From Clostridia bacterium (GTDB lineage: Bacteria > Bacillota > Clostridia > Oscillospirales > Acutalibacteraceae): a stretch of 32,000 nucleotides of DNA. Positions 13,702 to 30,552 of the stretch are shown here, piece by piece. The position numbers and the translations under genes are program-made. The notes beneath the pieces were generated by a model that saw only the letters and a program-made list of their open reading frames with translations, was not told where the DNA came from and did not search any database. Numbering within the stretch: the stretch's first letter is position 1; every line of letters starts with the position of its first letter. The stretch lies in assembly GCA_017415025.1 (NCBI GenBank), contig JAFQJH010000010.1, positions 28,888-60,887 on the forward strand, in the 5' to 3' direction.

Positions 13702-13708
13702 AAAAACG

Positions 13709-14350
13709 ATGATGAACGCTTACAGCGAGTTGTACTTGGATGATGCAATGCAGAATCTCGGAGATATGGTGGACTACGCCGTATGTGATTTAGGGTTTGA
13801 CCCTGACGAGTTCTTCGGTTGGTTTATATCTTCAGGTATTGCTTCACGTTTTGAAAAAGGCAATCCTAAATATGTAGGCGGAATGTCGGGTTATGAGCTT
13901 GCTGATGCAGTTCTCACCGCCACCAATGTTTCCTACGAAAAGAAAGAACCTTTATATTCTGATTTTAAGGGCAGAGAATATTGGGCAGGCTGGATTCTTG
14001 CATATTATCAGTGGATAACAAATCAGAGATTTGAAGACATCGTCAAAGACGGTCTTACTCTTTCCACTGTCTTTTCAATGTATATACTCCACGAAGCAGA
14101 TGTCAGCAAGTTTGTTGAAGCTGCAAACGAAGTGATTGCAAGAAATAAAGAAAATCGAAAATCAAAGCTCAGCGAAATCAGAAAATCAAGAGGATTCACT
14201 CAACAGCAGTTAAGTGATGCATCCGGTGTAACACTTCGTATGATTCAGCTTTATGAACAGCGACAGAACGACATAAGTAAGGCGCAAGTGAATGTCGTGT
14301 TAAGCTTAGCAAAAGCTCTTGGCTGTGAAATTGAAGATATAATTGAATAA
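13709..14350 (+). CDS. DUF3791-like domain fused to a C-terminal XRE-type HTH
   Basis: 213 aa. The C-terminus LSEIRKSRGFTQQQLSDASGVTLRMIQLYEQRQNDISKAQVNVVLSLAKALGCEIEDI is a clear HTH_3. The start lies 7 nt after the upstream stop. Confidence 0.6.
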   Translation: MMNAYSELYLDDAMQNLGDMVDYAVCDLGFDPDEFFGWFISSGIASRFEKGNPKYVGGMSGYELADAVLTATNVSYEKKEPLYSDFKGREYWAGWILAYYQWITNQRFEDIVKDGLTLSTVFSMYILHEADVSKFVEAANEVIARNKENRKSKLSEIRKSRGFTQQQLSDASGVTLRMIQLYEQRQNDISKAQVNVVLSLAKALGCEIEDIIE

Positions 14351-14356
14351 AGCAAA

Positions 14357-14397
14357 CCGGCTGATATCTGAATAATCAGATGTCAGTCGGATTTTTT
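14357..14397 (+). terminator. Rho-independent terminator
   Basis: CCGGCTGATATCTGA-ataa-TCAGATGTCAGTCGG (two G-U/mismatch positions) followed by ATTTTTT. Confidence 0.6.
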
Positions 14398-15003: not shown

Positions 15004-16827
15004 ATGTTAATTGAAAAATATAACCCCAATACATTAAGTGTAGGTGCAATACTTGGTCTTATTGCATCCGGTGATATTGCTATTCCGGAAATTCAAAGAC
15101 CCTTTGTTTGGAAAAAAACACAAGTTCGTGATTTATTAGATTCGTTATATAAAGGATATCCTACTGGTTACTTAATCGTTTGGAAGAATCCAAATGTAAA
15201 GTTAAAAGATGGAACAGTTTCTTCGGGAAAAAAGATTTTGATTGACGGTCAGCAAAGAGTGACAGCTTTGATGACTGCCATTGCCGGCATCCCTGTTGTT
15301 AACGCAAGCTATAAAAAGGATCGCATAAAAATTGCATTTAACCCCTTTGAAGCGCTTTCTGAAGACAAAGATGCGGAAATCTTTGCAGTACAGGACCAGA
15401 GCCATTTGAAAGGCAAAAAGTGGATTCCGGATGTGGCTGAAATTTTCAAACCCGGTTTCAAACAGTTCTCATTCATCAATCAGTATTGCACTGATAACCC
15501 TGATATGGATCCCGAAACACTTGGAGAAATACTTAGCAATCTTACATCAATCGCAAACCGTCTTATTGGTGTTATCGAGCTTTCAGATAATCTTGATATT
15601 GATATTGTTACAGATATATTTATCCGAATAAATTCTAAAGGAACTGCATTAAGTCAGGGTGACTTTGTCATGTCTAAGATTGCATCCGATGAAGAACATG
15701 GTGGTAACGCTCTTCGCAAGGCAATTGATTATTTTGCTCATCTTTGTGTTGAACCTTCTTTCTATAGCTATATCAAAGAAAACGACACAGATTTTGCGAA
15801 TTCCGAATATATCAACAAACTTTCATGGCTCAAAGATGATAAAGAAACTGTTTATGATCCAGAATGTGATGATATTCTTCGTGTTGCATTTATGCATATG
15901 TATCCAAGAGCAAAACTTGCAGACCTTGTAAGTCTGCTTTCAGGTAGAGATTTTGAAACAAGAGAATATAAATCTGAAATCATTGAAGAAACTTTTGCAA
16001 AATTAAAGCAAGGTGTCCTTAATGTAATAAACAAGAATAATTTTGAGCAATTTATGTTAGCAATTAAGGGAGCTGGATTTGTTTCTGAAAAACTGGTTAA
16101 TTCATATATGGCTCTTGATTTTGCATATGCACTGTACTTAAGACTTTCAATAAGTAAAGAAGTTAGTGTTAGTGAAATTAAAAAGATTGTTCAAAAATGG
16201 TATGTTCTTTCTGTGCTTACAGGTAGATACAGTTCATCTCCTGAAACTGCATTTTATAGGGATATTCGTAAAATAAATGAAGTAGGCGTTGTTAAAACAC
16301 TTGAAGATATGGAAGCTGCCCTTCTTTCGGATAATTTCTGGGAGGTAAAGGTTGTTCAAGATTTGGCATACACCTCAACTATCAATCCTACATACCTCGT
16401 TTATCTCGCAGCTCAGGTTGCTAACAATGATTTGTCATTGCTGTCTAACAATATAACGGTAAGAGATTTAATCGAAATTGCCGGTGATGTACACCACATT
16501 TTCCCGAAGGAATATCTCAAATCAAATGGATTCAATAAGAACCTTTATAATCAAGATGCAAACTACGCTTATCTCGATACGCAGGTTAACAAATCAATAG
16601 GCAAACAAGCCCCTTGTGAATATTTTGCAAAAGCATTGAAACAGTGTGAAACTAAGATTGTTGAATGCGGTTCAATCACTGAACTCAATGAACTGAAAGC
16701 TAACCTTGAGGCGAACTGCATTCCTTTTGAAGCTTGCAAAATGTCATATGAGGATTATGAGGGATTTCTTGAGGAACGTCGTAAGCTTATGGCGAAGAAA
16801 ATAAAAAGTTATTATTATAGTTTATAA
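15004..16827 (+). CDS. DUF262 (ParB-like NTPase) plus DUF1524 (His-Me/HNH) protein, GmrSD-like Type IV restriction candidate
   Basis: IPEIQRPFVWKKTQVRDLLDSLYKGYPTGYLIVW and the DGQQR motif (ILIDGQQRVTAL) in the N-terminal half. The C-terminal half has GDVHHIFPKEYL...NYAYLDTQVNKSIG. RBS AAAGGAG. Confidence 0.75.
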   Translation: MLIEKYNPNTLSVGAILGLIASGDIAIPEIQRPFVWKKTQVRDLLDSLYKGYPTGYLIVWKNPNVKLKDGTVSSGKKILIDGQQRVTALMTAIAGIPVVNASYKKDRIKIAFNPFEALSEDKDAEIFAVQDQSHLKGKKWIPDVAEIFKPGFKQFSFINQYCTDNPDMDPETLGEILSNLTSIANRLIGVIELSDNLDIDIVTDIFIRINSKGTALSQGDFVMSKIASDEEHGGNALRKAIDYFAHLCVEPSFYSYIKENDTDFANSEYINKLSWLKDDKETVYDPECDDILRVAFMHMYPRAKLADLVSLLSGRDFETREYKSEIIEETFAKLKQGVLNVINKNNFEQFMLAIKGAGFVSEKLVNSYMALDFAYALYLRLSISKEVSVSEIKKIVQKWYVLSVLTGRYSSSPETAFYRDIRKINEVGVVKTLEDMEAALLSDNFWEVKVVQDLAYTSTINPTYLVYLAAQVANNDLSLLSNNITVRDLIEIAGDVHHIFPKEYLKSNGFNKNLYNQDANYAYLDTQVNKSIGKQAPCEYFAKALKQCETKIVECGSITELNELKANLEANCIPFEACKMSYEDYEGFLEERRKLMAKKIKSYYYSL

Positions 16828-16842
16828 TTGAGGAATATTACG

Positions 16843-18930
16843 ATGGGAAATAAAATTATAGATACTTTTTGGGATGAATCTCCCATTGATGTAACACAAG
16901 AAGCAAATTTTATATGGTCAATTGCGAATAAATTGCGCGGTTCTTATATGCCCGATAAATACGGTGATGTGATTATTCCTATGACCATTATCCGCAGATT
17001 CGAATGTGCACTTGCAGATAAGAAAGATATTGTTAGAGCAACATTTGAAAAAGATCCAAAACACCCGCCAAAAGCTCTTTGTCGTTTGTCTGGTTATCAG
17101 TTTTATAATACGAGTGGTTATGACTTGGCAGAACTTTGTAATGATGCCGACAATATTGCTGAAAACTTTAAATCTTATATCAATAGATTTTCTTCAAATG
17201 TTCAGGATATTTTAAACGAGCTCGAAATCAATACTCATATCGATAAAATGGACAAGGATGGCTGTCTTTACTCCGTTGTAAAGGCATTCTCTGAACTTGA
17301 TTTGAGCCTTGAAACATTCGACAGCATTAAGATGGGGTATATTTTCGAGAATCTCATCGGACGTTTCTTCCAGAATGTTGATGCCGGACAGTTTTACACA
17401 GGTAGAGATATTATAAAACTTTTAGTTGAAATTCTTATGTCAGAAGGCTGTGACGATATTTTTGATAATGGTAAGGTTATCACCGTATGTGACCAGGCTT
17501 GTGGTACCGGCGGTATGCTTTCTACTGCCTATAATTATATTAAGCATTATAATCCCACTGCAGACGTTAGATTGTTTGGTCAGGAATATATGGGTGTATC
17601 TTATGCAGTCGGACTTGCAGAAATGTTGATTAAAAATCAAAATTCCGAGAATTTCAGACACACAGATACCTTCAAAGAAGACTGTTTTGAGAATATTAAA
17701 ATGCGATTCGTGATTGAAAATCCACCTTTTGGTACTCCTTGGTCTAGCAAAGATGCAAAAGTTGGGCAGGAAGATGCTGTTCGTGCAGAATATGCCAAAG
17801 GCGAAACGGGTCGTTGGGGACATGGATTACCTGACGGTGGTGATTCACAGCTTATCTTTATGCAGTCTGCCATTGATAAAATGGATGAAAAACTCGGTAG
17901 AGCTGCAATAATCGAAAACAGTTCTTCTCTTATGTCAAGTAAAGCATCTGCTGGAGAAAGTCAGATTCGCCGTTGGATGCTTGAAAGCGATTTGATCGAG
18001 GCAATCATTGCGCTTCCCGTAGACTTGTTCTACAACACAGGTATTCAAACTTATGTGTGGATTCTTTCAAAGAATAAACGTGCTGAACGAAAAGGTAAAG
18101 TTCAGCTTATCAATGCGGCAGCTTTTTATCATAAACTTCGCAAAGCAGTTGGCGATAAGAAAAATGAAATTTCTCCTGAAGACAGGAAGAAGATTGCTCA
18201 CCTTTATGCTGATTTTAAAGAAGGTGAATTCTGTAAAATTTATCGTAACGAAGAGTTTATGTATCGTGAATATACAGTTATGCAACCTCTCCAGCGCAGC
18301 TATGCTATTACAGAAGAACGAATTGAAGCTATGCTTTTAAATGGCATACTTAATAATCTTTATGATGAAGCAAAAGTTCGTGAATATGAAAATCAAGGCG
18401 TTGCCATTTCTGATGCTGACAAGAAGAAGTTCGATAAACTTCTTGCAGGTAAACCTACGTTTGATTTAATTGTTTCAAGACTTAAAGATAATATTTCTGA
18501 TAAAGTGTTCCTTTCTCCTAAGCCGTTTCTTGATTATCTTTCAACAATTTTAGATGTTGATAAAAAGTTGATTGAAAAAGTTGCAAATGGTCTTTCAGTG
18601 ATGGACAAGTCCGCAGAAATTCAAAGAGATAAAAAAGGTAATATAATCTACGATAAAACAACAGCTGAAACAGAAGTTGTAAAAATTGAAGAAGATATTG
18701 ATGATTATATGGCTCGTGAGGTATTGCCACATGTTCCTGATGCAGTTGCTTTCTTTGAAGAAGTAATTACAGAGAAAAAGACAGTTATCAAAACCGGTGC
18801 AGATATTGCGTTTACACGTTATTTTTATCAGTATCAAAAACCTGAAGATAGTGATGTGCTTGCAAGAAAGTTTATTGATATTGAAAACAATGTTAGTAAG
18901 AGAATATCAAAACTATTTATGGAGAATTAA
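16843..18930 (+). CDS. hsdM: Type I restriction-modification system, DNA methyltransferase subunit
   Basis: N-terminal HsdM-N pattern (ANFIWSIANKLRGSYMPDKYGDVIIPMTIIRRFE), motif I DQACGTGGML and motif IV ENPPFG. The ATG at 16843 lies 8 nt after GAGGA; the track TTG at 16828 is less likely. Confidence 0.9.
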   Translation: MGNKIIDTFWDESPIDVTQEANFIWSIANKLRGSYMPDKYGDVIIPMTIIRRFECALADKKDIVRATFEKDPKHPPKALCRLSGYQFYNTSGYDLAELCNDADNIAENFKSYINRFSSNVQDILNELEINTHIDKMDKDGCLYSVVKAFSELDLSLETFDSIKMGYIFENLIGRFFQNVDAGQFYTGRDIIKLLVEILMSEGCDDIFDNGKVITVCDQACGTGGMLSTAYNYIKHYNPTADVRLFGQEYMGVSYAVGLAEMLIKNQNSENFRHTDTFKEDCFENIKMRFVIENPPFGTPWSSKDAKVGQEDAVRAEYAKGETGRWGHGLPDGGDSQLIFMQSAIDKMDEKLGRAAIIENSSSLMSSKASAGESQIRRWMLESDLIEAIIALPVDLFYNTGIQTYVWILSKNKRAERKGKVQLINAAAFYHKLRKAVGDKKNEISPEDRKKIAHLYADFKEGEFCKIYRNEEFMYREYTVMQPLQRSYAITEERIEAMLLNGILNNLYDEAKVREYENQGVAISDADKKKFDKLLAGKPTFDLIVSRLKDNISDKVFLSPKPFLDYLSTILDVDKKLIEKVANGLSVMDKSAEIQRDKKGNIIYDKTTAETEVVKIEEDIDDYMAREVLPHVPDAVAFFEEVITEKKTVIKTGADIAFTRYFYQYQKPEDSDVLARKFIDIENNVSKRISKLFMEN

Positions 18931-18931
18931 T

Positions 18932-19759
18932 ATGACTGAAGAAATGATTAAAGCTTTTGGTGAATTTCAAGTTGAAAAAGGTATTTATGAACAAATAAAT
19001 GGAATAAAAATTGAAGATTTTAAAGCATTGACATCTAACCAAGCTTTAAAAACAATAGATCTATATTGTCCATTATGTAAAGAAAACAAAACATTCATTT
19101 ACTCGAAATCGGAATATATTAATGGATTAGGACAGCTTCCTTATCCCAGTGAAGATGGTTTTGGAACTGCATACACAGGTGCGATACGATTTTTAAATTA
19201 CGAATGTCCCTCTTGTGGTAAAAAACTTGTTTACGGATTTTATCATAATGGTAAAGCCAGTGTTACTAAAATAACGCAATATCCCTCCCTTTTTGATGTA
19301 AGTAGAGACGAACTAAAAAAATACCAGAAAAATGATTTGATTGACAAAGTAAGTTTTTCTCAGCTATACAAAGCAGAAACTTGTGCCAGTTCAGGGTATT
19401 ATGTAGCTGCTTATACTTATATGCGTAGAGTTTATGAAACAATGCTGTTATCTGTTTTTAAACAATACGAACAAGAAATAGGTATAACAGAAGATAATTT
19501 CCGAAAACTGCGGTCTGATGAAAAACTTAAATCAATTAAAAACTATTTAGCAATTGACGATGAAATTTATATTCCACTGTATGGTTTGTTAAGTGCTGGG
19601 ATTCACGCAATGACAGAAGAACAGTGTTGTGAAGATTATACTGTTTTAAAACCGATACTGTTAGAGATCTTGGCTGAACAAAAAGCAAAGAAAGAAAAAG
19701 CAGCCAAAAGAAAAGAACTTAAAGAATTATTTGCTAAAAGAAAAGGCGAAATGAAATGA
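18932..19759 (+). CDS. Zinc-ribbon protein with a DUF4145-like helical C-terminal half, inserted between hsdM and hsdS
   Basis: The ATG at 18932 lies 1 nt after the hsdM stop. Two CxxC pairs are present (CPLC at aa 46-49, CPSC at aa 92-95). YYVAAYTYMRRVYETML...LYGLLSAGIHAMTEE resembles DUF4145 (from memory). It has a Lys-rich tail. The track start at 18797 lies inside hsdM. Confidence 0.5.
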   Translation: MTEEMIKAFGEFQVEKGIYEQINGIKIEDFKALTSNQALKTIDLYCPLCKENKTFIYSKSEYINGLGQLPYPSEDGFGTAYTGAIRFLNYECPSCGKKLVYGFYHNGKASVTKITQYPSLFDVSRDELKKYQKNDLIDKVSFSQLYKAETCASSGYYVAAYTYMRRVYETMLLSVFKQYEQEIGITEDNFRKLRSDEKLKSIKNYLAIDDEIYIPLYGLLSAGIHAMTEEQCCEDYTVLKPILLEILAEQKAKKEKAAKRKELKELFAKRKGEMK

Positions 19760-21018
19760 GAGAAATGAAAGATAGTGGAATAGCTTGGGTGGGAACAATC
19801 CCGTCGCATTGGTTAAGTAAACCCATAGGGGCGCTTTTTCAGGAAATTAGAACAAAAAATTATTTGGGCAAAGAAAAACAAGCCTTGCAATTTAGAATGG
19901 GCTCAATTGTGCCTAAAGATAATTTTGATACAGATGTTGAAGATTATGTTGCCAATACAATAACCAATTATACTTTGGTTGACTATGGTACAATAATGAT
20001 TAATGGTTTGAATCTTAATTTCGATTTTGTTACACAAAGAGTTGCATTGGTTAAAGATAAAGGCGCAATTACGTCCGCTTATATGGCTATAAAAGCCAAG
20101 GATAATAACGAAATATTGCCTGAGTATAGTACATACCTTTTAAAAACATACGACAACTGTAAAGCATTCCACAATATGGGCGGCGGAGTCAGAAAAATAC
20201 TTAATTTTGATGAGTTGAGACGTAATTATATTATTTTACCATCAATAGATGAGCAAGAAAAAATAGTTGAATTTCTTGATATAAAGTGTTCTGAAATTGA
20301 TGCCTTGATTGCAGATATCCAAGAGCAAATTGAAACATTGGAGCAATATAAAAGGTCAACTGTTATTGAATCAGTTACTAAAGGTTTGAATCCCAATGTA
20401 CAAATGAAAGATAGCGGAATACAGTGGATAGGTAATATCCCTGTAACGTGGAATTGTGTTCGTGGTAAATATATTTTGAAATATATCTCAAAACCAGTCA
20501 GAGAAGACGATGGTGTAATTACTTGTTTTCGTGATGGTGAAGTAACGTTACGAAGCAAACGTCGTGAAGAAGGATTTACTATGGCTGACAAAGAAATCGG
20601 TTATCAAGGAATTGATGTTGGCGACCTTGTTGTGCACGGAATGGATGGTTTTGCAGGAGCAATTGGAATATCAGATTCACGAGGAAAAGCCTCTCCTGTA
20701 TTAAATGTTTTAGAAACAAAGCAAAACAAAAGATACATTATGTATTTTCTGCGCAGTATGGCTTATGGAGATGTATTCCTTGCTCTAGCAACTGGAATAC
20801 GAGTTCGTTCATGTGATTTGCGCTGGAACAAATTGGCTGAATTGTTCTATCCTATTCCTTCTCTTGGAGAACAAACTGAAATAGTTGAATATATCGACAG
20901 CGTTATCAAAGAAACAAATGTAATTATAGCTAATAAAAAAGAACAGATTGCAACCCTTGAGTCATACAAAAAATCAATTATTTTTGAGTATGTAACGGGC
21001 AAGAAAGAGGTTGAATAA
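19756..21018 (+). CDS. hsdS: Type I R-M specificity subunit (two target-recognition domains)
   Basis: The ATGA overlap with the upstream stop indicates coupling. Repeated conserved helices are LIADIQEQIETLEQYKRSTVIESVTKG and IIANKKEQIATLESYKKSIIFEYVTGK. Each TRD starts with KDSGI.W.G.IP..W. Confidence 0.85.
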   Translation: MREMKDSGIAWVGTIPSHWLSKPIGALFQEIRTKNYLGKEKQALQFRMGSIVPKDNFDTDVEDYVANTITNYTLVDYGTIMINGLNLNFDFVTQRVALVKDKGAITSAYMAIKAKDNNEILPEYSTYLLKTYDNCKAFHNMGGGVRKILNFDELRRNYIILPSIDEQEKIVEFLDIKCSEIDALIADIQEQIETLEQYKRSTVIESVTKGLNPNVQMKDSGIQWIGNIPVTWNCVRGKYILKYISKPVREDDGVITCFRDGEVTLRSKRREEGFTMADKEIGYQGIDVGDLVVHGMDGFAGAIGISDSRGKASPVLNVLETKQNKRYIMYFLRSMAYGDVFLALATGIRVRSCDLRWNKLAELFYPIPSLGEQTEIVEYIDSVIKETNVIIANKKEQIATLESYKKSIIFEYVTGKKEVE

Positions 21019-22266
21019 ATGATTGATTTTATAGACATATCAAAAGAGGCTACTGATTTATTGTTTGAAATAGTCGAACATGAAGAAGAGGCAAATTATT
21101 GGAAGAGTCGTTTTCAAAATATGAGTAATCGTGAAGACACAATATTACGTGGTTGTTTTAAAGAGTTGAGAGAAAACAATTTGGTTAATGTTTTATGGGC
21201 GGATAATTATCCTTACAATATTGCTATTTTAAAAGATGGGTATCTGTTCGAAGAAAAAACAAGAAAAGAAATTGAAGCAAACCTTAGTACTTTCGAAAAA
21301 GGTTTAAAAGGGTTATTACAACGCACCAAATCAATAAAATCTCCGATTAACGCAGCATCAATTGGCACTAATATTGATGAATATAACAAACCAAGCAATG
21401 TTTGGATTAACGACTTTGAAATCTTTTATAACAAGTACTTGAGAGACCATTTCTTATCTAAAAGAATTGAATCTATTCTTTTTCATAGAACGCTTAGTGC
21501 ATATAATGACTTAGTTGCAATTCTTGAAAGTATTAGTAAGGATACAGATTATATTAATAGCAAGAAAACAACATTTATTACTGAGGGTAAAGCTATGAAA
21601 GATTACGAGATTCTTTTAAAAAAATTAATTTCAAAAGCTAACAAAGATGATTTAAATATTCTTTGCTATACAATCGAATCCGGTGAACGTCCATTATTTG
21701 GTAAACTTGAAATGGATGGTTACATTAAAAACGTGCACTTTAGAGGTCACCAATATGTAGGACTTGATCTTACATATGAAGGTTTGCATTATTTTGATAA
21801 AAAAAGCGATGCTGTTCCCGAAAAAACAGACCCCAAACCAAGAAAAATGTATGATGTGTTTTTATCACACGCAAGTGCAGATAAGATAGCATATGTAGAA
21901 GATCTCAAAAAGTCTTTGGAAATTTTAGGTATAGAAATTTTTTATGACAAGGACACAATTGAGTGGGGAGATAATTGGAAAGCTAAAATATATGAAGGTT
22001 TGGAGAAATCTGAATTTGCAATTATCGTAATTTCTGAAAACTTTTTTGGAAGAGAATGGACTGAACTTGAACTTAAAACCTTGCTCGAACGACAGAATGA
22101 TGAAGGGCAAAAGTTAATTCTTCCTATTTTGCATAATATAACAACTGAGCAATTAAGGGATAAATATCCTACGGTTGCCGATATTCAAGCAATTGAATCT
22201 GGCAAGAATTCAACCGAACAAATAGTTTTATTATTTGCAAAACAATTAATAAAAAGATACAAATAA
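21019..22266 (+). CDS. TIR-domain protein with an N-terminal ~270-aa domain carrying two wHTH-like repeats
   Basis: The ATG directly abuts the hsdS TAA. The C-terminal TIR (aa ~277-395, nt ~21847-22203) reads MYDVFLSHASADKIAYVEDLKKSLEILGIEIFYDKDTIEWGD...FAIIVISENFFGREWTELELKTLL, with the conserved W-x-E glutamate. Confidence 0.8.
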   Translation: MIDFIDISKEATDLLFEIVEHEEEANYWKSRFQNMSNREDTILRGCFKELRENNLVNVLWADNYPYNIAILKDGYLFEEKTRKEIEANLSTFEKGLKGLLQRTKSIKSPINAASIGTNIDEYNKPSNVWINDFEIFYNKYLRDHFLSKRIESILFHRTLSAYNDLVAILESISKDTDYINSKKTTFITEGKAMKDYEILLKKLISKANKDDLNILCYTIESGERPLFGKLEMDGYIKNVHFRGHQYVGLDLTYEGLHYFDKKSDAVPEKTDPKPRKMYDVFLSHASADKIAYVEDLKKSLEILGIEIFYDKDTIEWGDNWKAKIYEGLEKSEFAIIVISENFFGREWTELELKTLLERQNDEGQKLILPILHNITTEQLRDKYPTVADIQAIESGKNSTEQIVLLFAKQLIKRYK

Positions 22267-22382
22267 AAACATAAGTATGTAGTTAATGCTTTTGATATAT
22301 AGTTTTCTTTATTGTTCTTTTTGTGTCGGATTTATTTGCTTATTACACAGTAATATTATATTCAACTGTAAGGAGGGCTCTT

Positions 22383-23687
22383 ATGAGCCAGGATAAAGTA
22401 AAGACAAAGAATATTGAAAAAATTAAATGGGTAGTACCACTTAGCATATTGTCTTTAAGCTTCATACTGTTAGGTGGATTCTTGCCTGTGTTTTTTAATT
22501 TTTCTAAATTAACCTGTATATTAAAAGTTGCTTTTATTGTTTGCTATATTCTCGGGTTTGTTTTAGTGATTGCACTTACTTATTTTGATAAAAACAATAA
22601 AGAGGAAGAAAGAAACTGTTGGAAAGATAAAGTTTTTTCTACATTTTTATATGTTGTTTATACTCTTAGCTTCTTAATGTTTTTCAACCATGAATTGTGG
22701 GGATATAAAGAAACAGTTTACGGTTTACTATTTCTAGTTGTCTTGTTTTTAGAAATCTATATAAGTTTAAAAATAATTTTAGGTAAAAAACTTAATTTAG
22801 AAAAAACACCAATGGTTTTAATATCTACTGCTGTTTTAACCTTTCTTTTAGCAGCAGTTAATCATACTGCAAATAACCTAATACCAGCCAACTTGCTTTA
22901 TAAGATAAGTATAGGGATTACTTATTTAGTAGCAATAGCATTATTTATAAATAGCTATCTTTTCAAAAAAAGAGATGATAATAAAACAATTAACACTATT
23001 ATTGGAATAGTTTTTTGGGGTTCATTGATACTTGTCACATTTCCTTATTATGTACAGTGGTGTGGTTTAAAAGAAGATGATTTTCAGACATTTGTTACCG
23101 TATATGCAGCTTTGATTGGCGGTGGTATAACTCTTGCTGGCGTTGCCTGGACAATAAAAGATAGTAACGACAAGAGAAAAGCGGATTTAGAACGCATTGA
23201 AATGGAACGTAAAGAAGATGACAGACGAAAACATAGACCAATTATGCATGTATACGCAGGTCCGTATTCCGGCCTAAAAACAGACATAAATGTTATGAAA
23301 TGGCTAAAAAACACTGAACAGATTTCCAAAGAAGCAACAGAAAAATTAAAGGTACCCAATAAAATACGCAGTTGTTATTTTGGCAATACAGAATTCTCAA
23401 ATGTTTATGTTTGGGGCATAAAACTTAATGGTAATATTACAAACTTTGATTCCATTAGATACATAAAAAAAGATAGTTATTTTTACTTGGATTTTTCTGA
23501 TAAACCTATATACACAGAAAAAACTATTGAAACAATTTCTCTAATTATTGAGGATGTTTTGGAAAATTTATATGAGTTACCATTAGATTTTGCATATAGC
23601 AAGGAGTTTGAATGGTTTACAATTGTAGGTAATAATCCGAGTTTTTATATTGGTAAAGTAGATAAGGGGAATATTATTTATGAATAA
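22383..23687 (+). CDS. Polytopic membrane protein (about 8 TM helices) with a ~170-aa soluble C-terminal domain
   Basis: AAGGAGG lies 6 nt before the ATG at 22383. Eight hydrophobic segments fall between aa ~16 and ~258, then a charged linker KRKADLERIEMERKEDDRRKHRP and a mixed beta-looking domain. The last 8 nt overlap the hsdR start. Confidence 0.6.
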   Translation: MSQDKVKTKNIEKIKWVVPLSILSLSFILLGGFLPVFFNFSKLTCILKVAFIVCYILGFVLVIALTYFDKNNKEEERNCWKDKVFSTFLYVVYTLSFLMFFNHELWGYKETVYGLLFLVVLFLEIYISLKIILGKKLNLEKTPMVLISTAVLTFLLAAVNHTANNLIPANLLYKISIGITYLVAIALFINSYLFKKRDDNKTINTIIGIVFWGSLILVTFPYYVQWCGLKEDDFQTFVTVYAALIGGGITLAGVAWTIKDSNDKRKADLERIEMERKEDDRRKHRPIMHVYAGPYSGLKTDINVMKWLKNTEQISKEATEKLKVPNKIRSCYFGNTEFSNVYVWGIKLNGNITNFDSIRYIKKDSYFYLDFSDKPIYTEKTIETISLIIEDVLENLYELPLDFAYSKEFEWFTIVGNNPSFYIGKVDKGNIIYE

Positions 23688-26661
23688 CATACTTTCCGAA
23701 AAAGAATATCAAAGATACATAATAGATGAGTTGGTCAATAATAATGATTATATTGAACGTAAAGCTGCTTCATTTGATCGTTATTTTGCCATTGATAGAG
23801 AAATGTTATTTAAGTTCCTTTGGGATACACAGGCAGAAACAATGAAGCTGCTTCGTAAAATTTACAAAGATACACTTGAAGAAACTTTAGTAAATTATTT
23901 GAATACTGAAATGACAAAGGCAAAAGGAAGTCTCCTTAATGTTCTTAAGCATGGCATTGAAATTGCTAACTATAAATTACACTTGATGTATACCAAACCG
24001 GCAACAACTTTTAATCAGGAATTACTTGATAAATACGAAAAAAATATTTTTTCCGTTATGGAAGAGGTTTGGGCGAGCGACAAAGAACGCATAGACCTTG
24101 TAATCTTCTTAAACGGTCTCGCTATTATGTCATTTGAACTAAAATGCAATATGGCAGGACAATCCTACGAAGATGCTATTTATCAATATCGTACTGAGCG
24201 TAATCCTAAGTCGAGATTATTCTTGTTCAAAGCAGGATGTCTTGTCAATTTTGCTATGGACTTAAACGAAGTTTATATGACAACCAAGCTTGACGGTCAG
24301 TCTACATTCTTCTTACCATTTAATATGGGTAACGGAGAAGGTGTAAATTCCGGAAAAGGTAATCCTACTTACGAGGACAAGTATAGCGTTTATTATATGT
24401 GGGAAGATATCCTCAAAAAAGATACTGTTCTTGACCTTATAAACAAGTTCATATTTATACAAGTTAAAGAATCTGTAGACGAACTTACAGGAAAGAAAAA
24501 GATTAAAGAAAGCATTATTTTTCCTCGTTACCATCAGCTTGATGTTATTCGTCAGGTGCTGTCTGATGTTGGAGAAAATCGCACTTCTCAAAACTACTTG
24601 ATTCAACATAGCGCAGGTTCAGGTAAGACGAATTCTATAGCTTGGTTAGCACACCGTTTATCATCTTTACACGATGCTGACAATAAGATTATTTTTGACA
24701 ACATTGTAATTGTTACTGACCGTGTTGTTGTTGACAGACAATTGCAAGCTGCTATCACTGGAATGGAGCATAAAGCAGGCTTAATTCGTGTGATGGACGA
24801 TAAATGTACATCTGCCGATCTCGCTATTGCGTTAAAAGGAAATACAAAAATTATTGCAACCACAATTCAAAAATTCCCCTATATAGTAGATAGTGTTGCT
24901 GGACTTAAAAATAAGAACTTTGCTGTAATTATAGATGAAGCTCATTCTTCAACGGCCGGTAAAGATATGGCAGCTATCACTATGACTTTAGGCAAAGGCG
25001 ATGCAGAGATTGATACTGAATCAGGCATTGATACAGAGGATATTATATCTGATGAAATTGCTCGTAATGGCAAACAACCCAACGTTTCAATTTTTGCGTT
25101 CACTGCAACTCCAAAGCCAACAACTTTGCAGCTTTTTGGTAAAGTAAATGCTAAAGGTCAGAGAGAAGCTTTCCATATTTACTCTATGAAGCAGGCAATT
25201 GAAGAAGGCTTTATTCTTGATGTTTTACAAAACTTTACAAAGTATTCTACATTCTATCAAATCAACAAGGAAATTGAAGAAGATCCTCGTTGCAAGACTG
25301 TTGATGCAAAACGTCAGATAGCACGTTTTGTAGAACTTCATGAAACAAACATTTCACAACGAATTGAAGTTATTATCGAGCATTTCCGTACAACTGTTAT
25401 GGGTGAACTTGGTGGTATGGCAAAAGCTATGGTTATAACAGCATCAAGACAAAGTGCAGTTAAATATCGACAAGCTTTAGAAGACTATATAAATCGTAAG
25501 GGATACAAGGATATTCATGCCCTTGTAGCTTTTTCAGGAAAAGTTAATCTTCCTGATGACGAAAAAGAATATACTGAAAGTTCAATCAATGGTTTTTCTG
25601 AAGATAAACTGACAACAGAATTTGATAAAGATGAGTACAAAGTGCTTCTTGTTGCAAATAAATATCAAACCGGTTTTGACCAACCAAAACTTTGTGCAAT
25701 GTACGTGCTCAAAAAACTCCGTAGTGTGAATGCAGTTCAGACACTTTCAAGACTCAATCGAATTTGTCCGCCGTTTGATAAGAAGACATTCATTCTTGAC
25801 TTTGTAAACAAATACGAGGATATTGTTGCTGCATTTAAACCTTATTACACTACAACATTGCTCGCCAACTCCGTAACTCCTTCAGCCGTTTATGATTTGG
25901 AAGCTAAACTCGATGGTTATACTGTACTCGATCCTACAGACATTGACTGTGCAGTTGCGTATCTGTATCAAGGCGATTCTAATGCTGCAGTTAAAAAGAA
26001 GCTTAATTATTACTTTAAGCGTACGAAAAACCGTATTGAGCAGTATGATATCTTGAAGCAACTGGAGATAGTTGCTGTTATGCGTCATTTTATTCGTTTT
26101 TATGAGTTCCTTATCCAAGTTTCATGTTTTGAGGATATTGAACTTCATAAAAAGTACCTGTTTGTAAACTATCTTATGTCGTATATAGATATCAAACATC
26201 CCGGCGGTGGTTATAATCTTGATGGTAAAATCAAAGCTTCTAACTTCGTTCAAAAGAAGGGCGAAGAACACAAGGGTGAAAAGATGGTTTCTGACCCTGT
26301 TGTTAAATTGCCTACCGCTGATACTATTATGTTGCCAGAGGACAAGAGAGAACGTCTTTCTGTTATCATTGCAGAAATTAATAGTAAAACCGGAAAATCA
26401 TATGACAATGATGTAGCAATCAAAGCAATGTTACAGATCAAAGATTTGCTTATGAAGTCCGAAAAACTTCGCACTAGTGCAAAAAACAACACAATTAAAG
26501 ATTTTGAATTCTCATACTTTGATGATATTGATGATGCACTTATAGAAGGTTTGTCACAGAATCAAGATTTCTTCTCATTACTGCTTAATAATGATGAGAT
26601 AAAAAAACAAGTTTTAGGTATTTTTACGGATGAGATTTATAAGAGTTTAAGAAACACTTGA
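23680..26661 (+). CDS. hsdR: Type I restriction enzyme, R (helicase-nuclease) subunit
   Basis: 993 aa. It has an N-terminal PD-(D/E)xK region (DLVIFLNGLAIMSFELK), Walker A HSAGSGKTNS, DEAH box IIDEAHSS, and helicase motif VI QTLSRLNR. Confidence 0.9.
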   Translation: MNNILSEKEYQRYIIDELVNNNDYIERKAASFDRYFAIDREMLFKFLWDTQAETMKLLRKIYKDTLEETLVNYLNTEMTKAKGSLLNVLKHGIEIANYKLHLMYTKPATTFNQELLDKYEKNIFSVMEEVWASDKERIDLVIFLNGLAIMSFELKCNMAGQSYEDAIYQYRTERNPKSRLFLFKAGCLVNFAMDLNEVYMTTKLDGQSTFFLPFNMGNGEGVNSGKGNPTYEDKYSVYYMWEDILKKDTVLDLINKFIFIQVKESVDELTGKKKIKESIIFPRYHQLDVIRQVLSDVGENRTSQNYLIQHSAGSGKTNSIAWLAHRLSSLHDADNKIIFDNIVIVTDRVVVDRQLQAAITGMEHKAGLIRVMDDKCTSADLAIALKGNTKIIATTIQKFPYIVDSVAGLKNKNFAVIIDEAHSSTAGKDMAAITMTLGKGDAEIDTESGIDTEDIISDEIARNGKQPNVSIFAFTATPKPTTLQLFGKVNAKGQREAFHIYSMKQAIEEGFILDVLQNFTKYSTFYQINKEIEEDPRCKTVDAKRQIARFVELHETNISQRIEVIIEHFRTTVMGELGGMAKAMVITASRQSAVKYRQALEDYINRKGYKDIHALVAFSGKVNLPDDEKEYTESSINGFSEDKLTTEFDKDEYKVLLVANKYQTGFDQPKLCAMYVLKKLRSVNAVQTLSRLNRICPPFDKKTFILDFVNKYEDIVAAFKPYYTTTLLANSVTPSAVYDLEAKLDGYTVLDPTDIDCAVAYLYQGDSNAAVKKKLNYYFKRTKNRIEQYDILKQLEIVAVMRHFIRFYEFLIQVSCFEDIELHKKYLFVNYLMSYIDIKHPGGGYNLDGKIKASNFVQKKGEEHKGEKMVSDPVVKLPTADTIMLPEDKRERLSVIIAEINSKTGKSYDNDVAIKAMLQIKDLLMKSEKLRTSAKNNTIKDFEFSYFDDIDDALIEGLSQNQDFFSLLLNNDEIKKQVLGIFTDEIYKSLRNT

Positions 26662-26736
26662 TTATTAAAAACTAAAAAGAGCTTTAAAAATGGATTATAT
26701 GTTCTAGGTTTAAAGTTCATATCGTAGGAGGAGAAT

Positions 26737-28281
26737 ATGAATTATATCAAGTCATTACATATTGAGGGTTTTAGAAAATTTTCCTCTCTTGATGTGGAGT
26801 TTAATGAACACATGAATATTCTTGTAGGAGAGAATGAAGCTGGTAAAAGCACGATTTTGGATGCGCTAAAAACTGTACTCAATCAGCAATATCGAAATAC
26901 AGATAAAGCGGTATTGAGAGATTTGTTTAATGCACAGATGGTAGAATCATTTTATACTAATCCAAGTGTCAAAACTCTTCCTCGAATTTATATTGAAGTG
27001 GAACTTGTGCTTGATCCGAAGAAGAAAAGTTCATCTTATTTTTATGGAGAGGCATATGGGAAAAGAAAACAACAAGATGAAAAATTTGGTATTCGTTTTG
27101 AGTGTAAGTTCGATGAAGAACTTGGTTCTGGTATGGAACAATCAATTATTGATGGAAAAATTCCTTACGAATACTATTCTTTGACTTGGACCACCTTTGC
27201 AAATAGACCATATCAGATGATAAAGAGACCATTAAACTTCATATCTATCGATACGACTAACAGTTCAACGACGCCATCATTCAATTATTATAATAGAACC
27301 TTATTCTCGAGTAGGTATGATGAAGCTACTAGAGCAAAGGCAAAGAATGAATTTAGAAGCAAGTTGGAAGATGCTCTTGCAGCTACTAACCTTCCACCAA
27401 TTAGTGATAATAGAAAATTTGGTATAGATGGTAAGAAGGTCGTTTTGGAAACGATCTTGTCTGTATATGAAGATTCAATTGCCCTTGAAAATCGTGGTAG
27501 CGGTATGGAAAGTCTTATAAAAACACAGATAGCATTGGATAAGGCTAACGGTTTGGATGTTATTTTGATGGAAGAACCAGAGAATCATCTTAGTTTCGTC
27601 ACTTTGCGAAAGATGCTTCAAGAAATATCTGTTCAACAGGAAAACTCGCAGATTATTGTGGCTACTCATAATAATATGATTGCTAGTCGACTGAATTTGA
27701 ACAATGTTTTGTGGATTACAGATAATAGTGTTAAGAGTTTAGCTGGTGTAAAAAATGATGTAGCAGAGTTTTTCGTTCGAGCTGATGACAATGCCTTTTT
27801 ACAGTTGTTGTTGTCAAAGAAGGTTTTTCTGGTTGAGGGAGCAACAGAATTTCTACTTATCCCTATTTTTTATAAGCAGCAAACAGGACATACCATTGAA
27901 GAAGATGGCATATCTGTAATTTCATGTAATGGTATTTCTTATATGAGATATATTGAAATTGCAAAAGCTACTGATAAAAGAATTGCTGTCATCACCGATA
28001 ATGACAAGAAAAAAGATAGGATTACGAAAGCAGACACCTTTAATAAGTCTAACAAGTTGCAGCATATCTTTTTAGGAAAAACGGAAGACGAATGGACATG
28101 GGAGGCATGTCTCTATAAAGAGAACAAAGAAGTTTTAGATAATATGATTACTGTTCAGCCAGGCGCGGAATATAAATTCCACGGAGAAGACTACGGTTTT
28201 GTTTTGGGTAAGATGTTAAACAATAAAGTTGATGTTGCCTACCAGATGCTTACTTCAGGTGTTACTTTTGCGATACCTTAG
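26737..28281 (+). CDS. OLD-family ATP-dependent nuclease (ABC-type ATPase plus Toprim), GajA-like
   Basis: IEGFRKFSSLDVEFNEHMNILVGENEAGKSTILDAL (Walker A), GMESLIKTQIAL (signature-like) and VILMEEPENHLS (Walker B). The Toprim part is VFLVEGATEFLL and AVITDNDKK. RBS AGGAGGAG. Confidence 0.8.
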   Translation: MNYIKSLHIEGFRKFSSLDVEFNEHMNILVGENEAGKSTILDALKTVLNQQYRNTDKAVLRDLFNAQMVESFYTNPSVKTLPRIYIEVELVLDPKKKSSSYFYGEAYGKRKQQDEKFGIRFECKFDEELGSGMEQSIIDGKIPYEYYSLTWTTFANRPYQMIKRPLNFISIDTTNSSTTPSFNYYNRTLFSSRYDEATRAKAKNEFRSKLEDALAATNLPPISDNRKFGIDGKKVVLETILSVYEDSIALENRGSGMESLIKTQIALDKANGLDVILMEEPENHLSFVTLRKMLQEISVQQENSQIIVATHNNMIASRLNLNNVLWITDNSVKSLAGVKNDVAEFFVRADDNAFLQLLLSKKVFLVEGATEFLLIPIFYKQQTGHTIEEDGISVISCNGISYMRYIEIAKATDKRIAVITDNDKKKDRITKADTFNKSNKLQHIFLGKTEDEWTWEACLYKENKEVLDNMITVQPGAEYKFHGEDYGFVLGKMLNNKVDVAYQMLTSGVTFAIP

Positions 28282-28301
28282 TACATAAAGGATGCGATTG
28301 A

Positions 28302-29426
28302 ATGGCTAAAAAAGTAATCTTGGCGGTTGCCGGTGCAGGAAAAACCTATCACATATGCCATAAGATAGACCCTGGAAAGAGAAATCTAATACTTGCTTTT
28401 ACTCATGAAAACATCCAAAACATTCAGAAAGAACTATGCGATGCACATGGTTGTGTGCCGGAGCTAACAACAGTATCAACTTTTGACTCTTTTGTATACC
28501 ATCATATGGTATTACCTTATGAACCGAGCATAGCAGAACACTTTGGTTGTCCTCAGATTGTTAGTCGTGGAATTTGCACAATAGCTCCACCATCCCAGAC
28601 AATAAAGACTTCTAAAGGAAAAACTATTGCAAATCCGCTATACAAGAAAAAAGATAGGCTTGCTCACTATGTTACTATGAGAGGACAATACTATTGTGCG
28701 ACTCTGTCCGAACTAGTTTTACAGGTGAAGAAAAATCGAGAATCACTTATAAAGAGAGTAGCGGCACGCCTTAATTTATTTTATGATTGTGTACTCATTG
28801 ATGAGTTTCAAGATTTCCGAGAATATGATTACGAGTTGATTATGACTCTAGCCAAACAATTAAATGATGTTACTCTTATCGGTGACTACTATCAACATTC
28901 TGTGTCTGCAACGAACAATTCCGGTAAACCTTTTAAGAAAAAAACTAATGATGTTTGTTATGATGATTTTGTATCTGAACTTATTAGTGTTGGTTTCGAA
29001 GTAGATGTGACCACTCTAAATAAGTCTAGACGCTGTTCTGTAGATGTATGTCAGTTTGTGACCAGCAAGCTTGGTATCAACATTGATTCTTGCGGAGAAA
29101 ATATTGGTAATGTTATTTGGGCAGATGAGTATGCAACTGAAATTCTTGACGATAATCAAATTGTGAAGTTGGTTTATAAAGATGCTGCTCTCTATTCGTT
29201 TCGTTCAATGAACTGGTCATATTCAAAGGGTGATACTATGGATGCAGTTTGTGTTATATTAACAGACAGGTTTGACAATCTTGATATTGCTAATTTTTCT
29301 GATAATGGTGTGCCGGTATCTACTTTAAATAAATTATATGTTGCATTGACAAGAAGCCGTGGTAATTTATATTTAATAAAAGCTTCTACTTTCAAATTAT
29401 TAAAAGAAAAATATCTAAAACCTTAA
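28302..29426 (+). CDS. Short UvrD/Rep-like SF1 helicase, GajB-like
   Basis: AVAGAGKTYHI (motif I), VLIDEFQDF (motif II), LNKSRRCS and LYVALTRSRGNLYLI (motif VI). At 374 aa it is shorter than typical UvrD-family proteins. Confidence 0.75.
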   Translation: MAKKVILAVAGAGKTYHICHKIDPGKRNLILAFTHENIQNIQKELCDAHGCVPELTTVSTFDSFVYHHMVLPYEPSIAEHFGCPQIVSRGICTIAPPSQTIKTSKGKTIANPLYKKKDRLAHYVTMRGQYYCATLSELVLQVKKNRESLIKRVAARLNLFYDCVLIDEFQDFREYDYELIMTLAKQLNDVTLIGDYYQHSVSATNNSGKPFKKKTNDVCYDDFVSELISVGFEVDVTTLNKSRRCSVDVCQFVTSKLGINIDSCGENIGNVIWADEYATEILDDNQIVKLVYKDAALYSFRSMNWSYSKGDTMDAVCVILTDRFDNLDIANFSDNGVPVSTLNKLYVALTRSRGNLYLIKASTFKLLKEKYLKP

Positions 29427-29453
29427 TTTTATCAAGAAAAGGGAGTTTTAAAT

Positions 29454-30464
29454 GTGGCTAGAAAAGGTCGCGACTTTGAGTTGGCTTATGAGTGGTTATA
29501 TGATCTAAATGAAAATTATACAGTCACAAGTCCTGCTTATGTGTATGATAAAGCAGCAGAAGTGATGAGAGAAGTTGATGTACTTGTTGAGTATGTGGAT
29601 GATAGAGGCTACAATCGTAAAATAGCTATTGAGTGTAGGGATCGAAAGCAATCCGAAAATGTAATGTGGATAGACCAACTCGTTCAAAAGCGTGAAGATT
29701 TAGAGTTGGATTATATTATTGCAACAACAACCCAGACTTTTAGTGAAGCTGCTATAAGAAAAGCTAAATATCATGGCATAATTATAGAGCGAGCGGAATT
29801 GGCCAATAGTAAAACCATAGAAGATGCTGCACAAAACTTTAATTTAGATATTTTCTTTTTTAAGTTTGAGTTATTGTCCTGTAATTTTTTATTAAAGAAC
29901 AACCAAAAACTTAAATTTTCAGAATATTTAAACAGATTGAATTTTTTACAGCGAGCCAAACTCATAAATGAATTCAATACCTCCCTGTATTTCGGATTTG
30001 AGCCAAACAATTTATTAAAAGAATGTGAGATAGAAACGAAAGACTTTTTTTCGAGAGATGACAACAGTATAACGATTCGTGCAGATAGTTTTTTAACTGA
30101 GTTTCCTCTGTTAGAGTTTATGGAGGATGTAGCACTTTTCGACTGGGAAATCAGAGTAATACCTATTAAGATAACACTGCCTCTTTCGGATTCTATTTCG
30201 GTTTTTGATGCTGAGAGTAACTCGAATAAAGATTACCGTGCTATTTATGGAAACAATGAAGATTACTTGCGTTTAGGTTATTTGAACGGAAAATTATTTA
30301 CAGAAATAAAATTCAAACATCGTGAGTATTTGCGATTTGCAAGTATGAATCTAGAACTAAACACAATTATTCCTGAAGAAACTGATACTTCTGCAATAGA
30401 CGACATCAATTGTTATATTGCAGACAATTTATTGGGGAAGTTTGATTTTTCAAAAATTTTATAA
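29454..30464 (+). CDS. PD-(D/E)xK (Mrr_cat-like) restriction endonuclease-fold protein with an unknown C-terminal domain
   Basis: GTG start 8 nt after GGGAG. GRDFELAYEWL...REVDVLVEY...KIAIECRDRK...IIATTTQTFSEAAIRKAKYHGIIIE fits the Mrr catalytic-domain pattern (D...E-x-K/R). The ~200-aa C-terminal part has no recognised motif. Confidence 0.55.
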   Translation: MARKGRDFELAYEWLYDLNENYTVTSPAYVYDKAAEVMREVDVLVEYVDDRGYNRKIAIECRDRKQSENVMWIDQLVQKREDLELDYIIATTTQTFSEAAIRKAKYHGIIIERAELANSKTIEDAAQNFNLDIFFFKFELLSCNFLLKNNQKLKFSEYLNRLNFLQRAKLINEFNTSLYFGFEPNNLLKECEIETKDFFSRDDNSITIRADSFLTEFPLLEFMEDVALFDWEIRVIPIKITLPLSDSISVFDAESNSNKDYRAIYGNNEDYLRLGYLNGKLFTEIKFKHREYLRFASMNLELNTIIPEETDTSAIDDINCYIADNLLGKFDFSKIL

Positions 30465-30522
30465 AGCTCAACGTAAAAATTGCCCAAAACCATACCGCGC
30501 TAAACTTCAACGCTTTAAAGTG

Positions 30523-30552
30523 TTGACATTTGTTTTTTTTGTGTGGTACAAT
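30523..30552 (+). promoter_or_regulatory. Strong orphan sigma-A promoter with no ORF downstream
   Basis: TTGACA (30523-30528), an 18-nt spacer, then TGgTACAAT (TACAAT at 30547-30552). Confidence 0.5.

Follow-up and report, generated by a model that had tools for sequence, protein, structure and literature searches.

Genes for a TIR-domain protein and a membrane protein of eight helices in the hsdS-hsdR junction of a gut Clostridia restriction operon: probably two accessory defence cassettes

Introduction

Why does a Type I restriction-modification (R-M) operon carry, between its specificity and restriction genes, one gene for a TIR-domain protein and another for a membrane protein with eight transmembrane (TM) helices? 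The question is raised by a stretch of 32,000 nucleotides (the window; contig JAFQJH010000010.1, positions 28,888 to 60,887 of the forward strand, assembly GCA_017415025.1), the source of which is a metagenome-assembled genome (MAG) of a gut Clostridia bacterium. Defence functions are known to be found among the genes embedded in Type I operons, but few such genes have been tested. A first-pass annotation of the window had compared the two genes to prrC and had proposed that they act together, either as a module guarded by the restriction enzyme or as a Thoeris-like pair. The reading favoured here, with a probability of about 0.55, is that the TIR gene and the 8-TM gene are accessory defence cassettes independent of each other, which have been stacked at a hypervariable site, the hsdS-hsdR junction of a Type I operon within a defence island of gut Clostridia.

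Organization of the hsdS-hsdR junction

A complete Type I R-M set (hsdM, hsdS and hsdR) was identified in one locus, based on Pfam and PADLOC matches. The TIR gene (21019-22266, + strand) encodes 415 amino acids (aa), and its ATG follows the hsdS stop codon (21016-21018) without a gap. It is followed by a spacer of 116 bp (22267-22382), in which a Shine-Dalgarno sequence, AAGGAGG, was read at 22370-22376, and by the 8-TM gene (22383-23687, + strand; 434 aa). The ATG at 22383, behind AAGGAGG, is the likely start of the latter; a longer open reading frame (ORF) with a GTG at 22323 is not likely to mark the start. The 8-TM stop codon (23685-23687) lies over the hsdR ATG (23680), the two genes overlapping by 8 nucleotides (nt) in the common stretch ATGAATAA. 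Both junctions are as the first-pass annotation had described them. The layout of the two inserts with the hsd genes is co-transcriptional, and both are translationally coupled to them.

The operon had also been called canonical apart from these two genes. Both do lie inside it, but a third embedded gene is found at 18932-19759, and GmrSD_N, Gabija and Mrr-like genes flank the set. The packed + strand gene string spans 15004-30464 (Pfam, PADLOC). On this strand there was no terminator-like site between those at 14357-14390 and 30507-30526, save a weak one of 7 pairs at 29453-29472, at the junction of the GajB and Mrr-like genes. The scan for promoters and terminators, in which site counts were not above the shuffled expectation, found no site in the TIR/8-TM spacer. 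All of 15004-30464 may be one transcription unit.

Independent distribution of the TIR and 8-TM genes

A metagenome scan with two TIR-domain motifs yielded at least 429 confirmed loci with relatives of the TIR protein, of which the best 80 were annotated. Loci of the 8-TM family were obtained from direct look-ups and from a scan of species-representative genomes. The 8-TM gene was absent from 79 of the 80 TIR-clade loci, and most 8-TM loci were without a TIR gene. The sole exception was L035, where, as in the other 79, the annotation had given no 8-TM match but inspection revealed a TIR gene, a gene for 116 aa and then a partial 8-TM gene at the end of the locus. The idea that the two genes form one unit is thus not supported by their distribution.

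The closest relatives of the operon point the same way. All eight operons with an HsdR at least 89% identical to that of the window carry the 8-TM gene, and five of them carry the TIR gene. The HsdR of L018, which has no TIR gene, is 98% identical to that of the window, as close as that of the TIR-bearing L013. Protein identities of the relatives to the window were 87-97% for HsdM, 89-98% for HsdR, 72-78% for the TIR protein and 26-82% for the 8-TM protein. The closest 8-TM relative (82%) was found in L012, where a 116-aa gene stands in the place of the TIR gene, while those with a TIR neighbour were 26-55% identical to the window protein and had different types of C-terminal domain. The type present in the window (type A) was not detected in L001 or L013, which share with the window the order HsdS-TIR-8TM-HsdR.

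The edges of the exchange were located with blastn. Between the window and L012 homology stops at 21027 and resumes at 22348, the 116-aa gene replacing the TIR gene, so that the swappable cassette (21028-22347, + strand) consists of the TIR gene and most of the spacer. Between the window and L018, DNA identity is 93% in hsdM and 95.5% in hsdR, and the junction is unrelated save for the 8-TM core. A relation of the 116-bp spacer to the 116-aa gene, as its remnant, was considered and rejected, since homology to L012 resumes only 35 bp before the 8-TM ATG; the 116-aa protein has no similarity to the TIR protein either.

Because the 8-TM gene is present in all eight close backbones and the TIR gene in five, because the TIR-linked 8-TM proteins are only 26-55% identical to that of the window while the closest one is TIR-less, and because the cassette edges in L012 and L018 are sharp, the adjacency of the two genes is best explained by shared operon ancestry and not by a functional pair. 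Both families are independently and recurrently placed at restriction operons, and cassettes are swapped at the hsdS-hsdR junction. The survey of gene neighbourhoods asked for by the first-pass annotation thus bore out a recurrence of each family in or beside hsd operons and gave no regular co-occurrence of the two.

The contents of the junction vary widely in the relatives. The order HsdS-TIR-8TM-HsdR is also found in L116; in L117 a gene for 115 aa separates the TIR and 8-TM genes, HsdS and HsdR again lying on either side, and in L124 a TIR protein of 324 aa is followed by the 8-TM protein and HsdR. In L118-L120 a TIR protein of 318 aa precedes a soluble protein of 102 aa and HsdR, and there is no 8-TM gene. 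Other stacked cassettes between hsdS and hsdR combine the TIR gene with soluble proteins of 142-151 aa, or place proteins of 232 aa or 320 aa before it. The junction of L067, L068 and L070 holds a TIR protein of 281 aa, an AAA ATPase of 351 aa with weak similarity to GajA, and a protein of 258 aa. The 320-aa protein, which is encoded between hsdS and the gene for a 339-aa TIR protein in L056-L058 (about 4093-5055 in L056), has several Zn-ribbon CxxC pairs and an RxxxxH motif and is possibly HEPN-like.

Adjacent TIR and membrane genes within one operon also suggest a Thoeris-like pair, in which the 8-TM protein would use its C-terminal domain to sense a nucleotide signal produced by the TIR protein. 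The effector of Type II Thoeris is a membrane protein, and the TIR domain of the window matched the PADLOC model of ThsB, in part, at 3.3e-25. The Pfam family ThsB_TIR, however, was not matched by the TIR protein, and the nearest solved TIR structures are those of AbTir and BtpA. No SLOG, STALD, Macro, SAVED or other known ligand-binding domain was found in the 8-TM protein with Pfam, PADLOC, NCBIfam or Foldseek, and its model has no structural match. The type of the presumed sensor domain varies between TIR-linked loci, and such co-occurrence as there is can be explained by lineage, as the counts in the close backbones show. A producer and effector pair, as the first-pass annotation had suggested, is therefore unlikely, given the independent distribution of the genes and an 8-TM protein without a recognisable ligand-binding domain.

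The TIR protein

The TIR protein was divided into a winged helix-turn-helix (wHTH)-like segment (aa 1-80), a helical region (aa 88-190), an alpha/beta insert (aa 195-265) and the TIR domain (aa 275-415). The match to Pfam TIR_2 (1.2e-20) covers aa 280-394, and the TIR domain was also delimited as aa 278-404. The motifs FLSHA, WGD and REWTE.EL were invariant across 34 aligned relatives. Residue E351 (encoded at 22069-22071), invariant in the same 34, aligns with the catalytic glutamate of AbTir (WTNYEL) and BtpA (WPAREL), and E349 is likewise invariant. The hallmark FLSH segment and the catalytic glutamate had been recognised earlier; the aligned glutamate is E351. A phmmer comparison with AbTIR gave 1.1e-25.

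In an AlphaFold2 model (predicted local distance difference test score, pLDDT, 79) aa 9-70 form a helical bundle with a hairpin and aa 195-251 a unit of mixed alpha/beta structure. With Foldseek the model matched BtpA/TcpB, PdTIR, BtTir and AbTir at 2e-10 to 9e-8; for the TIR domain the TM-scores to these targets were 0.65-0.85 and the identities 32-41%. The TIR domain is of the AbTir/BtpA type with intact catalytic residues. To judge by these residues, the protein most likely cleaves NAD+ when switched on, possibly forming a cyclic ADP-ribose isomer.

The N-terminal part is harder to place. No Pfam match was obtained for three sub-segments of the first 270 aa, and no library searched names any part of it. 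The two similar wHTH-like segments that had been proposed here are barely supported: BLASTP found nothing, hhalign gave a probability of 15.6% over 38 columns, and of the two modelled units one is a helical bundle with a hairpin and the other mixed alpha/beta. An internal wHTH repeat was accordingly rejected. Relatives of 338 aa are without the second unit, and those of 318-324 aa are without the helical region. With aa 1-190 as the query, nearly all homologues were TIR-fused proteins or fragments, which gives no indication that the N-domain is joined to other effectors. One N-domain-only protein, P0360, was found, in a defence island without hsd genes. In the plasmid collection the TIR protein gave only matches at the level of the TIR domain, 31-44% identical, to DUF1883/TIR proteins.

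The best PADLOC match of the gene was to PDC-S66 (2.5e-45), by its TIR part only. The window protein covers positions 139-274 of the 282 in that model and four other architectures of the clade cover 136-277, the N-termini of the window protein (270 aa) and of all variants tested lying outside the match. Assignment of the pair to a named system would have removed the claim of novelty; the match of the TIR part to this untested candidate reduces it, and the N-terminus and the 8-TM protein have no counterpart there. Neither the TIR protein nor the 8-TM protein has an ABC-ATPase or anticodon nuclease domain according to Pfam and PADLOC.

Occurrence of the TIR clade and the guard hypothesis

The TIR clade comprises more than 1,300 protein clusters. 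Within three genes of the TIR gene, hsdS or hsdM upstream and hsdR downstream were found in 42 of the 80 annotated loci, and inspection added the same hsdS-TIR-hsdR layout in 6 loci where the ORF caller had missed the TIR gene, which brings the total to at least 48 of 80. In another 12 only one side is present on the contig or locus, and it agrees with this layout; about 15 either lack hsd genes or are too short to be judged. The TIR proteins of the 80 loci have 247-442 aa with differing N-termini, and HsdR at these loci is 24-85% identical to that of the window; over all the Type I families in which the clade occupies the slot, the range is 24-98%. At 27 of 38 junctions the start of the TIR gene lies over the hsdS stop, with 1-8 nt in common.

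Among the loci outside hsd operons are conjugative elements with a MobL relaxase and an Eco57I-type system. In L043, L047, L048 and L050, which are conjugative or mobilisable elements, TIR relatives of 343 aa share the N-terminal region; nearby are a DUF3991-Toprim protein and a MobL relaxase that has Sel1 repeats. In the hsd-less L115 (5749-9226) a TIR relative of 415 aa stands behind an 83-aa remnant of an HsdS C-terminus, and the next gene encodes a fusion of a reverse transcriptase (RVT_1) and a Trypsin_2 protease. The arrangement has the appearance of an hsd operon that decayed within a different defence island.

The position of the TIR gene is the one held by prrC, and the likeness drawn by the first-pass annotation was borne out in so far as both families recur in or beside Type I hsd operons. 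A functional link like that of PrrC would predict such fidelity to position, but no mechanism follows from it. In a guard of the PrrC or Ronin type, the Hsd complex would hold the TIR protein, the 8-TM protein or both latent, and anti-restriction proteins such as Ocr, ArdA or one like Stp would release them, with NAD+ depletion or membrane damage as the result. The fidelity of the TIR clade to the slot across divergent Type I families, the overlap of its start with the hsdS stop, the overlap of the 8-TM stop with the hsdR start in all scored loci and the HsdS remnant kept 5' of the TIR gene in L115 all agree with a guard. There is also the precedent of Ronin, in which a membrane toxin, RonA, is suppressed by HsdMS and freed by Ocr, ArdA or Aop1 (bioRxiv 10.1101/2023.04.06.535777).

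These arguments are positional throughout. Against them, one TIR architecture of 338/339 aa occurs with HsdR proteins which are only 24% or 67-73% identical to that of the window, and this disfavours a tightly co-evolved protein interface. About 15-20% of the TIR loci and about half of the 8-TM loci lie outside hsd operons, in conjugative elements or with Type II and Type IV systems. Many unrelated cassettes (DarTG2, ATPases, small soluble proteins) are moreover found in the junction, as would be expected of a recombination hotspot. A guard function is regarded as a plausible explanation of the locus, though a less probable one than two independent cassettes.

The 8-TM protein and its family

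The 8-TM protein consists of a TM bundle (aa 1-258), a conserved core (aa 240-286) and a beta-sandwich (aa 287-433). The gene product was characterised with an AlphaFold2 model (pLDDT 77) and a family alignment (A1). In the model there are eight TM helices, the last of which continues into a long charged helix. The number of helices had been given correctly at first; the soluble C-terminal domain is of about 150 aa and not about 170 aa. The charges of the loops fit an N-in/C-in topology, which places the beta-sandwich in the cytoplasm. The core is sharply conserved in A1 as GGGITLAGVAWTIKD.ND-KRKEDL.RIE.ERKEEERKK..P. Several unrelated versions exist of both the N-terminal TM bundle and the C-terminal domain, and they are shuffled among members of the family.

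The family profile, searched exhaustively, picked up 910 cluster representatives at E<=1e-3, or 545 when the threshold was E<=1e-10. The whole protein, its halves (E up to 5) and four relatives matched no family in Pfam, PADLOC or NCBIfam, and the A1 profile found nothing meaningful among PDB sequences. Claudin_2 (9e-4) was below the cutoff and was rejected as noise. With Foldseek nothing in PDB was matched below E=0.1, and a match in BFVD at 5.7e-4 was discarded on account of a TM-score of 0.17-0.25 and a root-mean-square deviation of 12.8. The 8-TM family is missing from every library searched.

The family was found in a variety of gene orders. The TIR-less ones with hsd genes were HsdS-116 aa-8TM-HsdR (L008, L012 and L017), HsdS-8TM-HsdR (L018), 8TM-HsdR (L022) and HsdMSR-GmrSD_N-8TM (L006/L014). 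The 8-TM gene occurs with GmrSD in L015, and in L003/L016, without hsd genes, it ends the series AAA ATPase-S24 peptidase-116 aa-8TM. Distant members end other Type I-like operons (L010, L021, L023, L025 and L033), and more distant ones adjoin GmrSD with SNF2, NlaIII-like and HpaII Type II systems, an SLFN-type helicase and a canonical Thoeris system. In L028 (9554-12680) a distant relative of the 8-TM core, of 340 aa, lies directly 5' of a Thoeris pair (ThsB_TIR and a SIR2-STALD ThsA). Of the 23 species-level loci about 10 belong to Type I or Type I-like operons, and about 19 have a restriction or defence neighbourhood. The TIR clade is largely confined to the hsdS-hsdR slot, the 8-TM family only in part. 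In all scored loci in which hsdR comes next, the 8-TM stop overlaps its start, the overlap being 8 nt in 7 entries (6 distinct loci) and 4 nt in L017. The 116-aa partner of the 8-TM relatives is a coiled-coil protein with a C-terminal TM anchor.

Most likely the site of action of the 8-TM protein is the membrane, which it would depolarise or permeabilise, or across which it would block DNA entry. It might instead be a membrane-located helper of restriction, for example a tether at sites of DNA entry or a block to superinfection or DNA injection, with the TIR protein a separate matter. The association of the family with Type I, with NlaIII-like and HpaII Type II and with GmrSD Type IV systems would suit such a helper, as would the coupling of hsdR translation to the 8-TM gene, which implies steady co-expression, and the exchangeable cytoplasmic domain could be a docking module. 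There is, however, no detectable likeness to known exclusion proteins (the SieB match, E=0.089, is noise), and tblastn found no member of the family in the phage or plasmid collections. A helper role is very improbable.

Proposed action of the two cassettes

In the favoured reading, that of two independent cassettes, the first would be a single-protein TIR enzyme of the AbTir/BtpA type, the N-terminal wHTH/helical region of which is presumably the sensor or regulatory part. Once switched on, it would cleave NAD+ and so stop the growth of the infected cell. The second cassette would be an inner-membrane protein with an exchangeable cytoplasmic beta-sandwich, preceded in many relatives by the membrane-anchored coiled-coil protein of 116 aa, and would act at the membrane. 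From the company they keep, we infer a defence role for each cassette. This company includes the GmrSD_N, Gabija and Mrr-like genes nearby and, for distant 8-TM relatives, restriction systems and Thoeris. Either cassette may also depend on the state of the Type I enzyme.

Several observations weigh against the independence of the cassettes. TIR proteins that bear the aa 195-265 insert stand beside an 8-TM gene in seven verified loci (the window, L001, L013, L035, L116, L117 and L124), among them the second architecture, of 324 aa, in L124, and TIR relatives without the insert never adjoin one. For an insert-bearing TIR protein an 8-TM neighbour is thus the usual case. There may thus be a functional link of the two genes within the insert-bearing subclade. 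The fidelity of the TIR gene to its position, with its start over the hsdS stop, may reflect a real dependence on the R-M complex. Finally, all related sequences are from MAGs or metagenome contigs of gut Firmicutes, and many are short.

A more elaborate view, speculative at present and less probable than independent cassettes, would make the TIR clade an NAD-consuming guard of Type I enzymes and the 8-TM family a second, Ronin-like guard for several kinds of restriction, so that the enzyme of the window would have two tripwires. The N-terminal wHTH/helical region would then dock on HsdM/HsdS (or HsdR) and keep the TIR domain off until DNA-mimic or other anti-restriction proteins released it.

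Flanking genes of the defence island

All genes of the string described here are on the + strand. The first gene of the operon (15004-16827) encodes a GmrSD_N-only (DUF262) protein of 607 aa (Pfam GmrSD_N, 4.5e-31; PADLOC HEC-05, 2.8e-31). It abuts hsdM and is kept 5' of that gene in most close relatives, namely L001, L008, L012, L013 and L018. The combination of a GmrSD_N gene and an hsd operon resembles Type I/Type IV composite systems described in other work. The methyltransferase gene hsdM (16828-18930) was identified by N6_Mtase (9.8e-55), HsdM_N and PADLOC MTase_I (6.7e-216). The specificity gene hsdS (19756-21018) matched Methylase_S and PADLOC Specificity_I (1.2e-83). The restriction gene hsdR (23680-26661) matched HSDR_N, ResIII, SWI2_SNF2 and T1R_D3-like domains and PADLOC REase_I (9.5e-31).

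The third embedded gene (18932-19759), between hsdM and hsdS, encodes a protein of 275 aa with two CxxC pairs, for which nothing significant was found in Pfam, PADLOC or NCBIfam. A homologue is present in L013. In other relatives the hsdM-hsdS slot is filled by different genes, namely Abi_alpha with a 124-aa protein of 4 TM helices, a 217-aa protein, or a 145-aa protein with a KAP NTPase, so that this junction looks like a second variable slot.

Downstream of hsdR, the genes for GajA (26737-28281; PADLOC 6.5e-85, Pfam AAA_15 with OLD-like_TOPRIM) and GajB (28302-29426; PADLOC 1.3e-41, Pfam UvrD-helicase) are adjacent, the ATPase-TOPRIM gene beside the UvrD-like one identifying a Gabija system. 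The last gene before the terminator-like site at 30507-30526 (29454-30464) encodes a protein of 336 aa with a Mrr_cat-like nuclease fold (Pfam Mrr_cat, 2.6e-4).

Just 5' of the operon, at 13045-14350, are genes for a DUF3990 protein and an HTH_3 protein, followed by the terminator-like site at 14357-14390, a strong hairpin. In L117 the two are fused into one protein of 291 aa 5' of hsdM. The pair may be a regulator or a toxin-antitoxin-like module. Farther upstream, at 7907-10288 on the - strand, a 793-aa Type IIL enzyme of the MmeI family is encoded. Its match to the MmeI_N nuclease domain is limited to the final third of that domain, and the enzyme may therefore be truncated at its N-terminus.

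Significance

Two families which are common in gut Firmicutes were delimited: a TIR clade, with a position after hsdS that is kept across distantly related Type I families, and a previously unannotated family of 8-TM proteins with a beta-sandwich which is tied to restriction systems. The tempting Thoeris-like reading of the adjacent TIR and membrane genes is corrected. If either family should sense the inhibition of a restriction enzyme, the guard principle of PrrC and Ronin would extend to NAD+ depletion and to a new membrane effector. It would then help to explain why phages and plasmids do not gain free access to these gut bacteria by means of anti-restriction proteins.

Comparison with known systems

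The concept of defence genes embedded in Type I operons is already known from PrrC, Ronin, DarTG2 and guilt-by-embedding. The literature yielded no account of a Type I operon with an embedded TIR protein or a member of this 8-TM family. GmrSD-like restriction genes are reportedly embedded too, in another study of this kind. One guilt-by-embedding survey drew 145 untested PADLOC candidates from genes within BREX, DISARM and Type I systems (bioRxiv 10.1101/2024.01.29.577857).

The nearest precedent for the position is PrrC of EcoprrI, a non-R-M gene between hsdS and hsdR; by analogy with it, a back-up for when restriction is blocked is the natural hypothesis. PrrC is, however, an ABC-ATPase anticodon nuclease, and the TIR and 8-TM inserts of the window have neither domain. 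Payne et al. (bioRxiv 10.1101/2024.01.29.577857) note that PrrC hardly occurs except within Type I R-M systems.

With Ronin the locus shares a membrane protein tightly linked to Type I hsd genes. RonA, however, has 61 aa and one TM helix, and most Ronin-carrying E. coli genomes are without hsdR (bioRxiv 10.1101/2023.04.06.535777), while the protein of the window has 434 aa, eight TM helices, a beta-sandwich and an intact hsdR downstream. By this description it is set apart from RonA.

PDC-S66 is, like the TIR gene of the window, an untested single-gene TIR candidate, and to judge by its name it is the product of a survey of the guilt-by-embedding kind. The match is confined to the TIR domain and is not full length, and there is no PADLOC model for the 8-TM family. 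PDC-S66 was found by name only in two genome-annotation papers.

With AbTir, BtpA (TcpB), PdTIR and BtTir the protein shares the TIR fold and a catalytic glutamate aligned to E351. These proteins differ in having coiled-coil or other N-termini, and they are not known from hsd operons. TIR defence systems consisting of a single protein have been demonstrated experimentally in E. coli (PMC11350192).

The resemblance to Thoeris lies in a TIR gene beside a possible effector gene and in the partial match to ThsB; the locus differs in having no ThsA-type domain (SIR2-SLOG/STALD or Macro) and no consistent co-occurrence of TIR and effector.

In enteropathogenic E. coli the hsdS-hsdR slot is filled by DarTG2, a toxin-antitoxin pair, and the site has been called a potential recombination hotspot (PMC12255303). 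The likeness here is that of an independent defence module in the same slot, a toxin-antitoxin pair in the one case and the TIR and 8-TM genes in the other.

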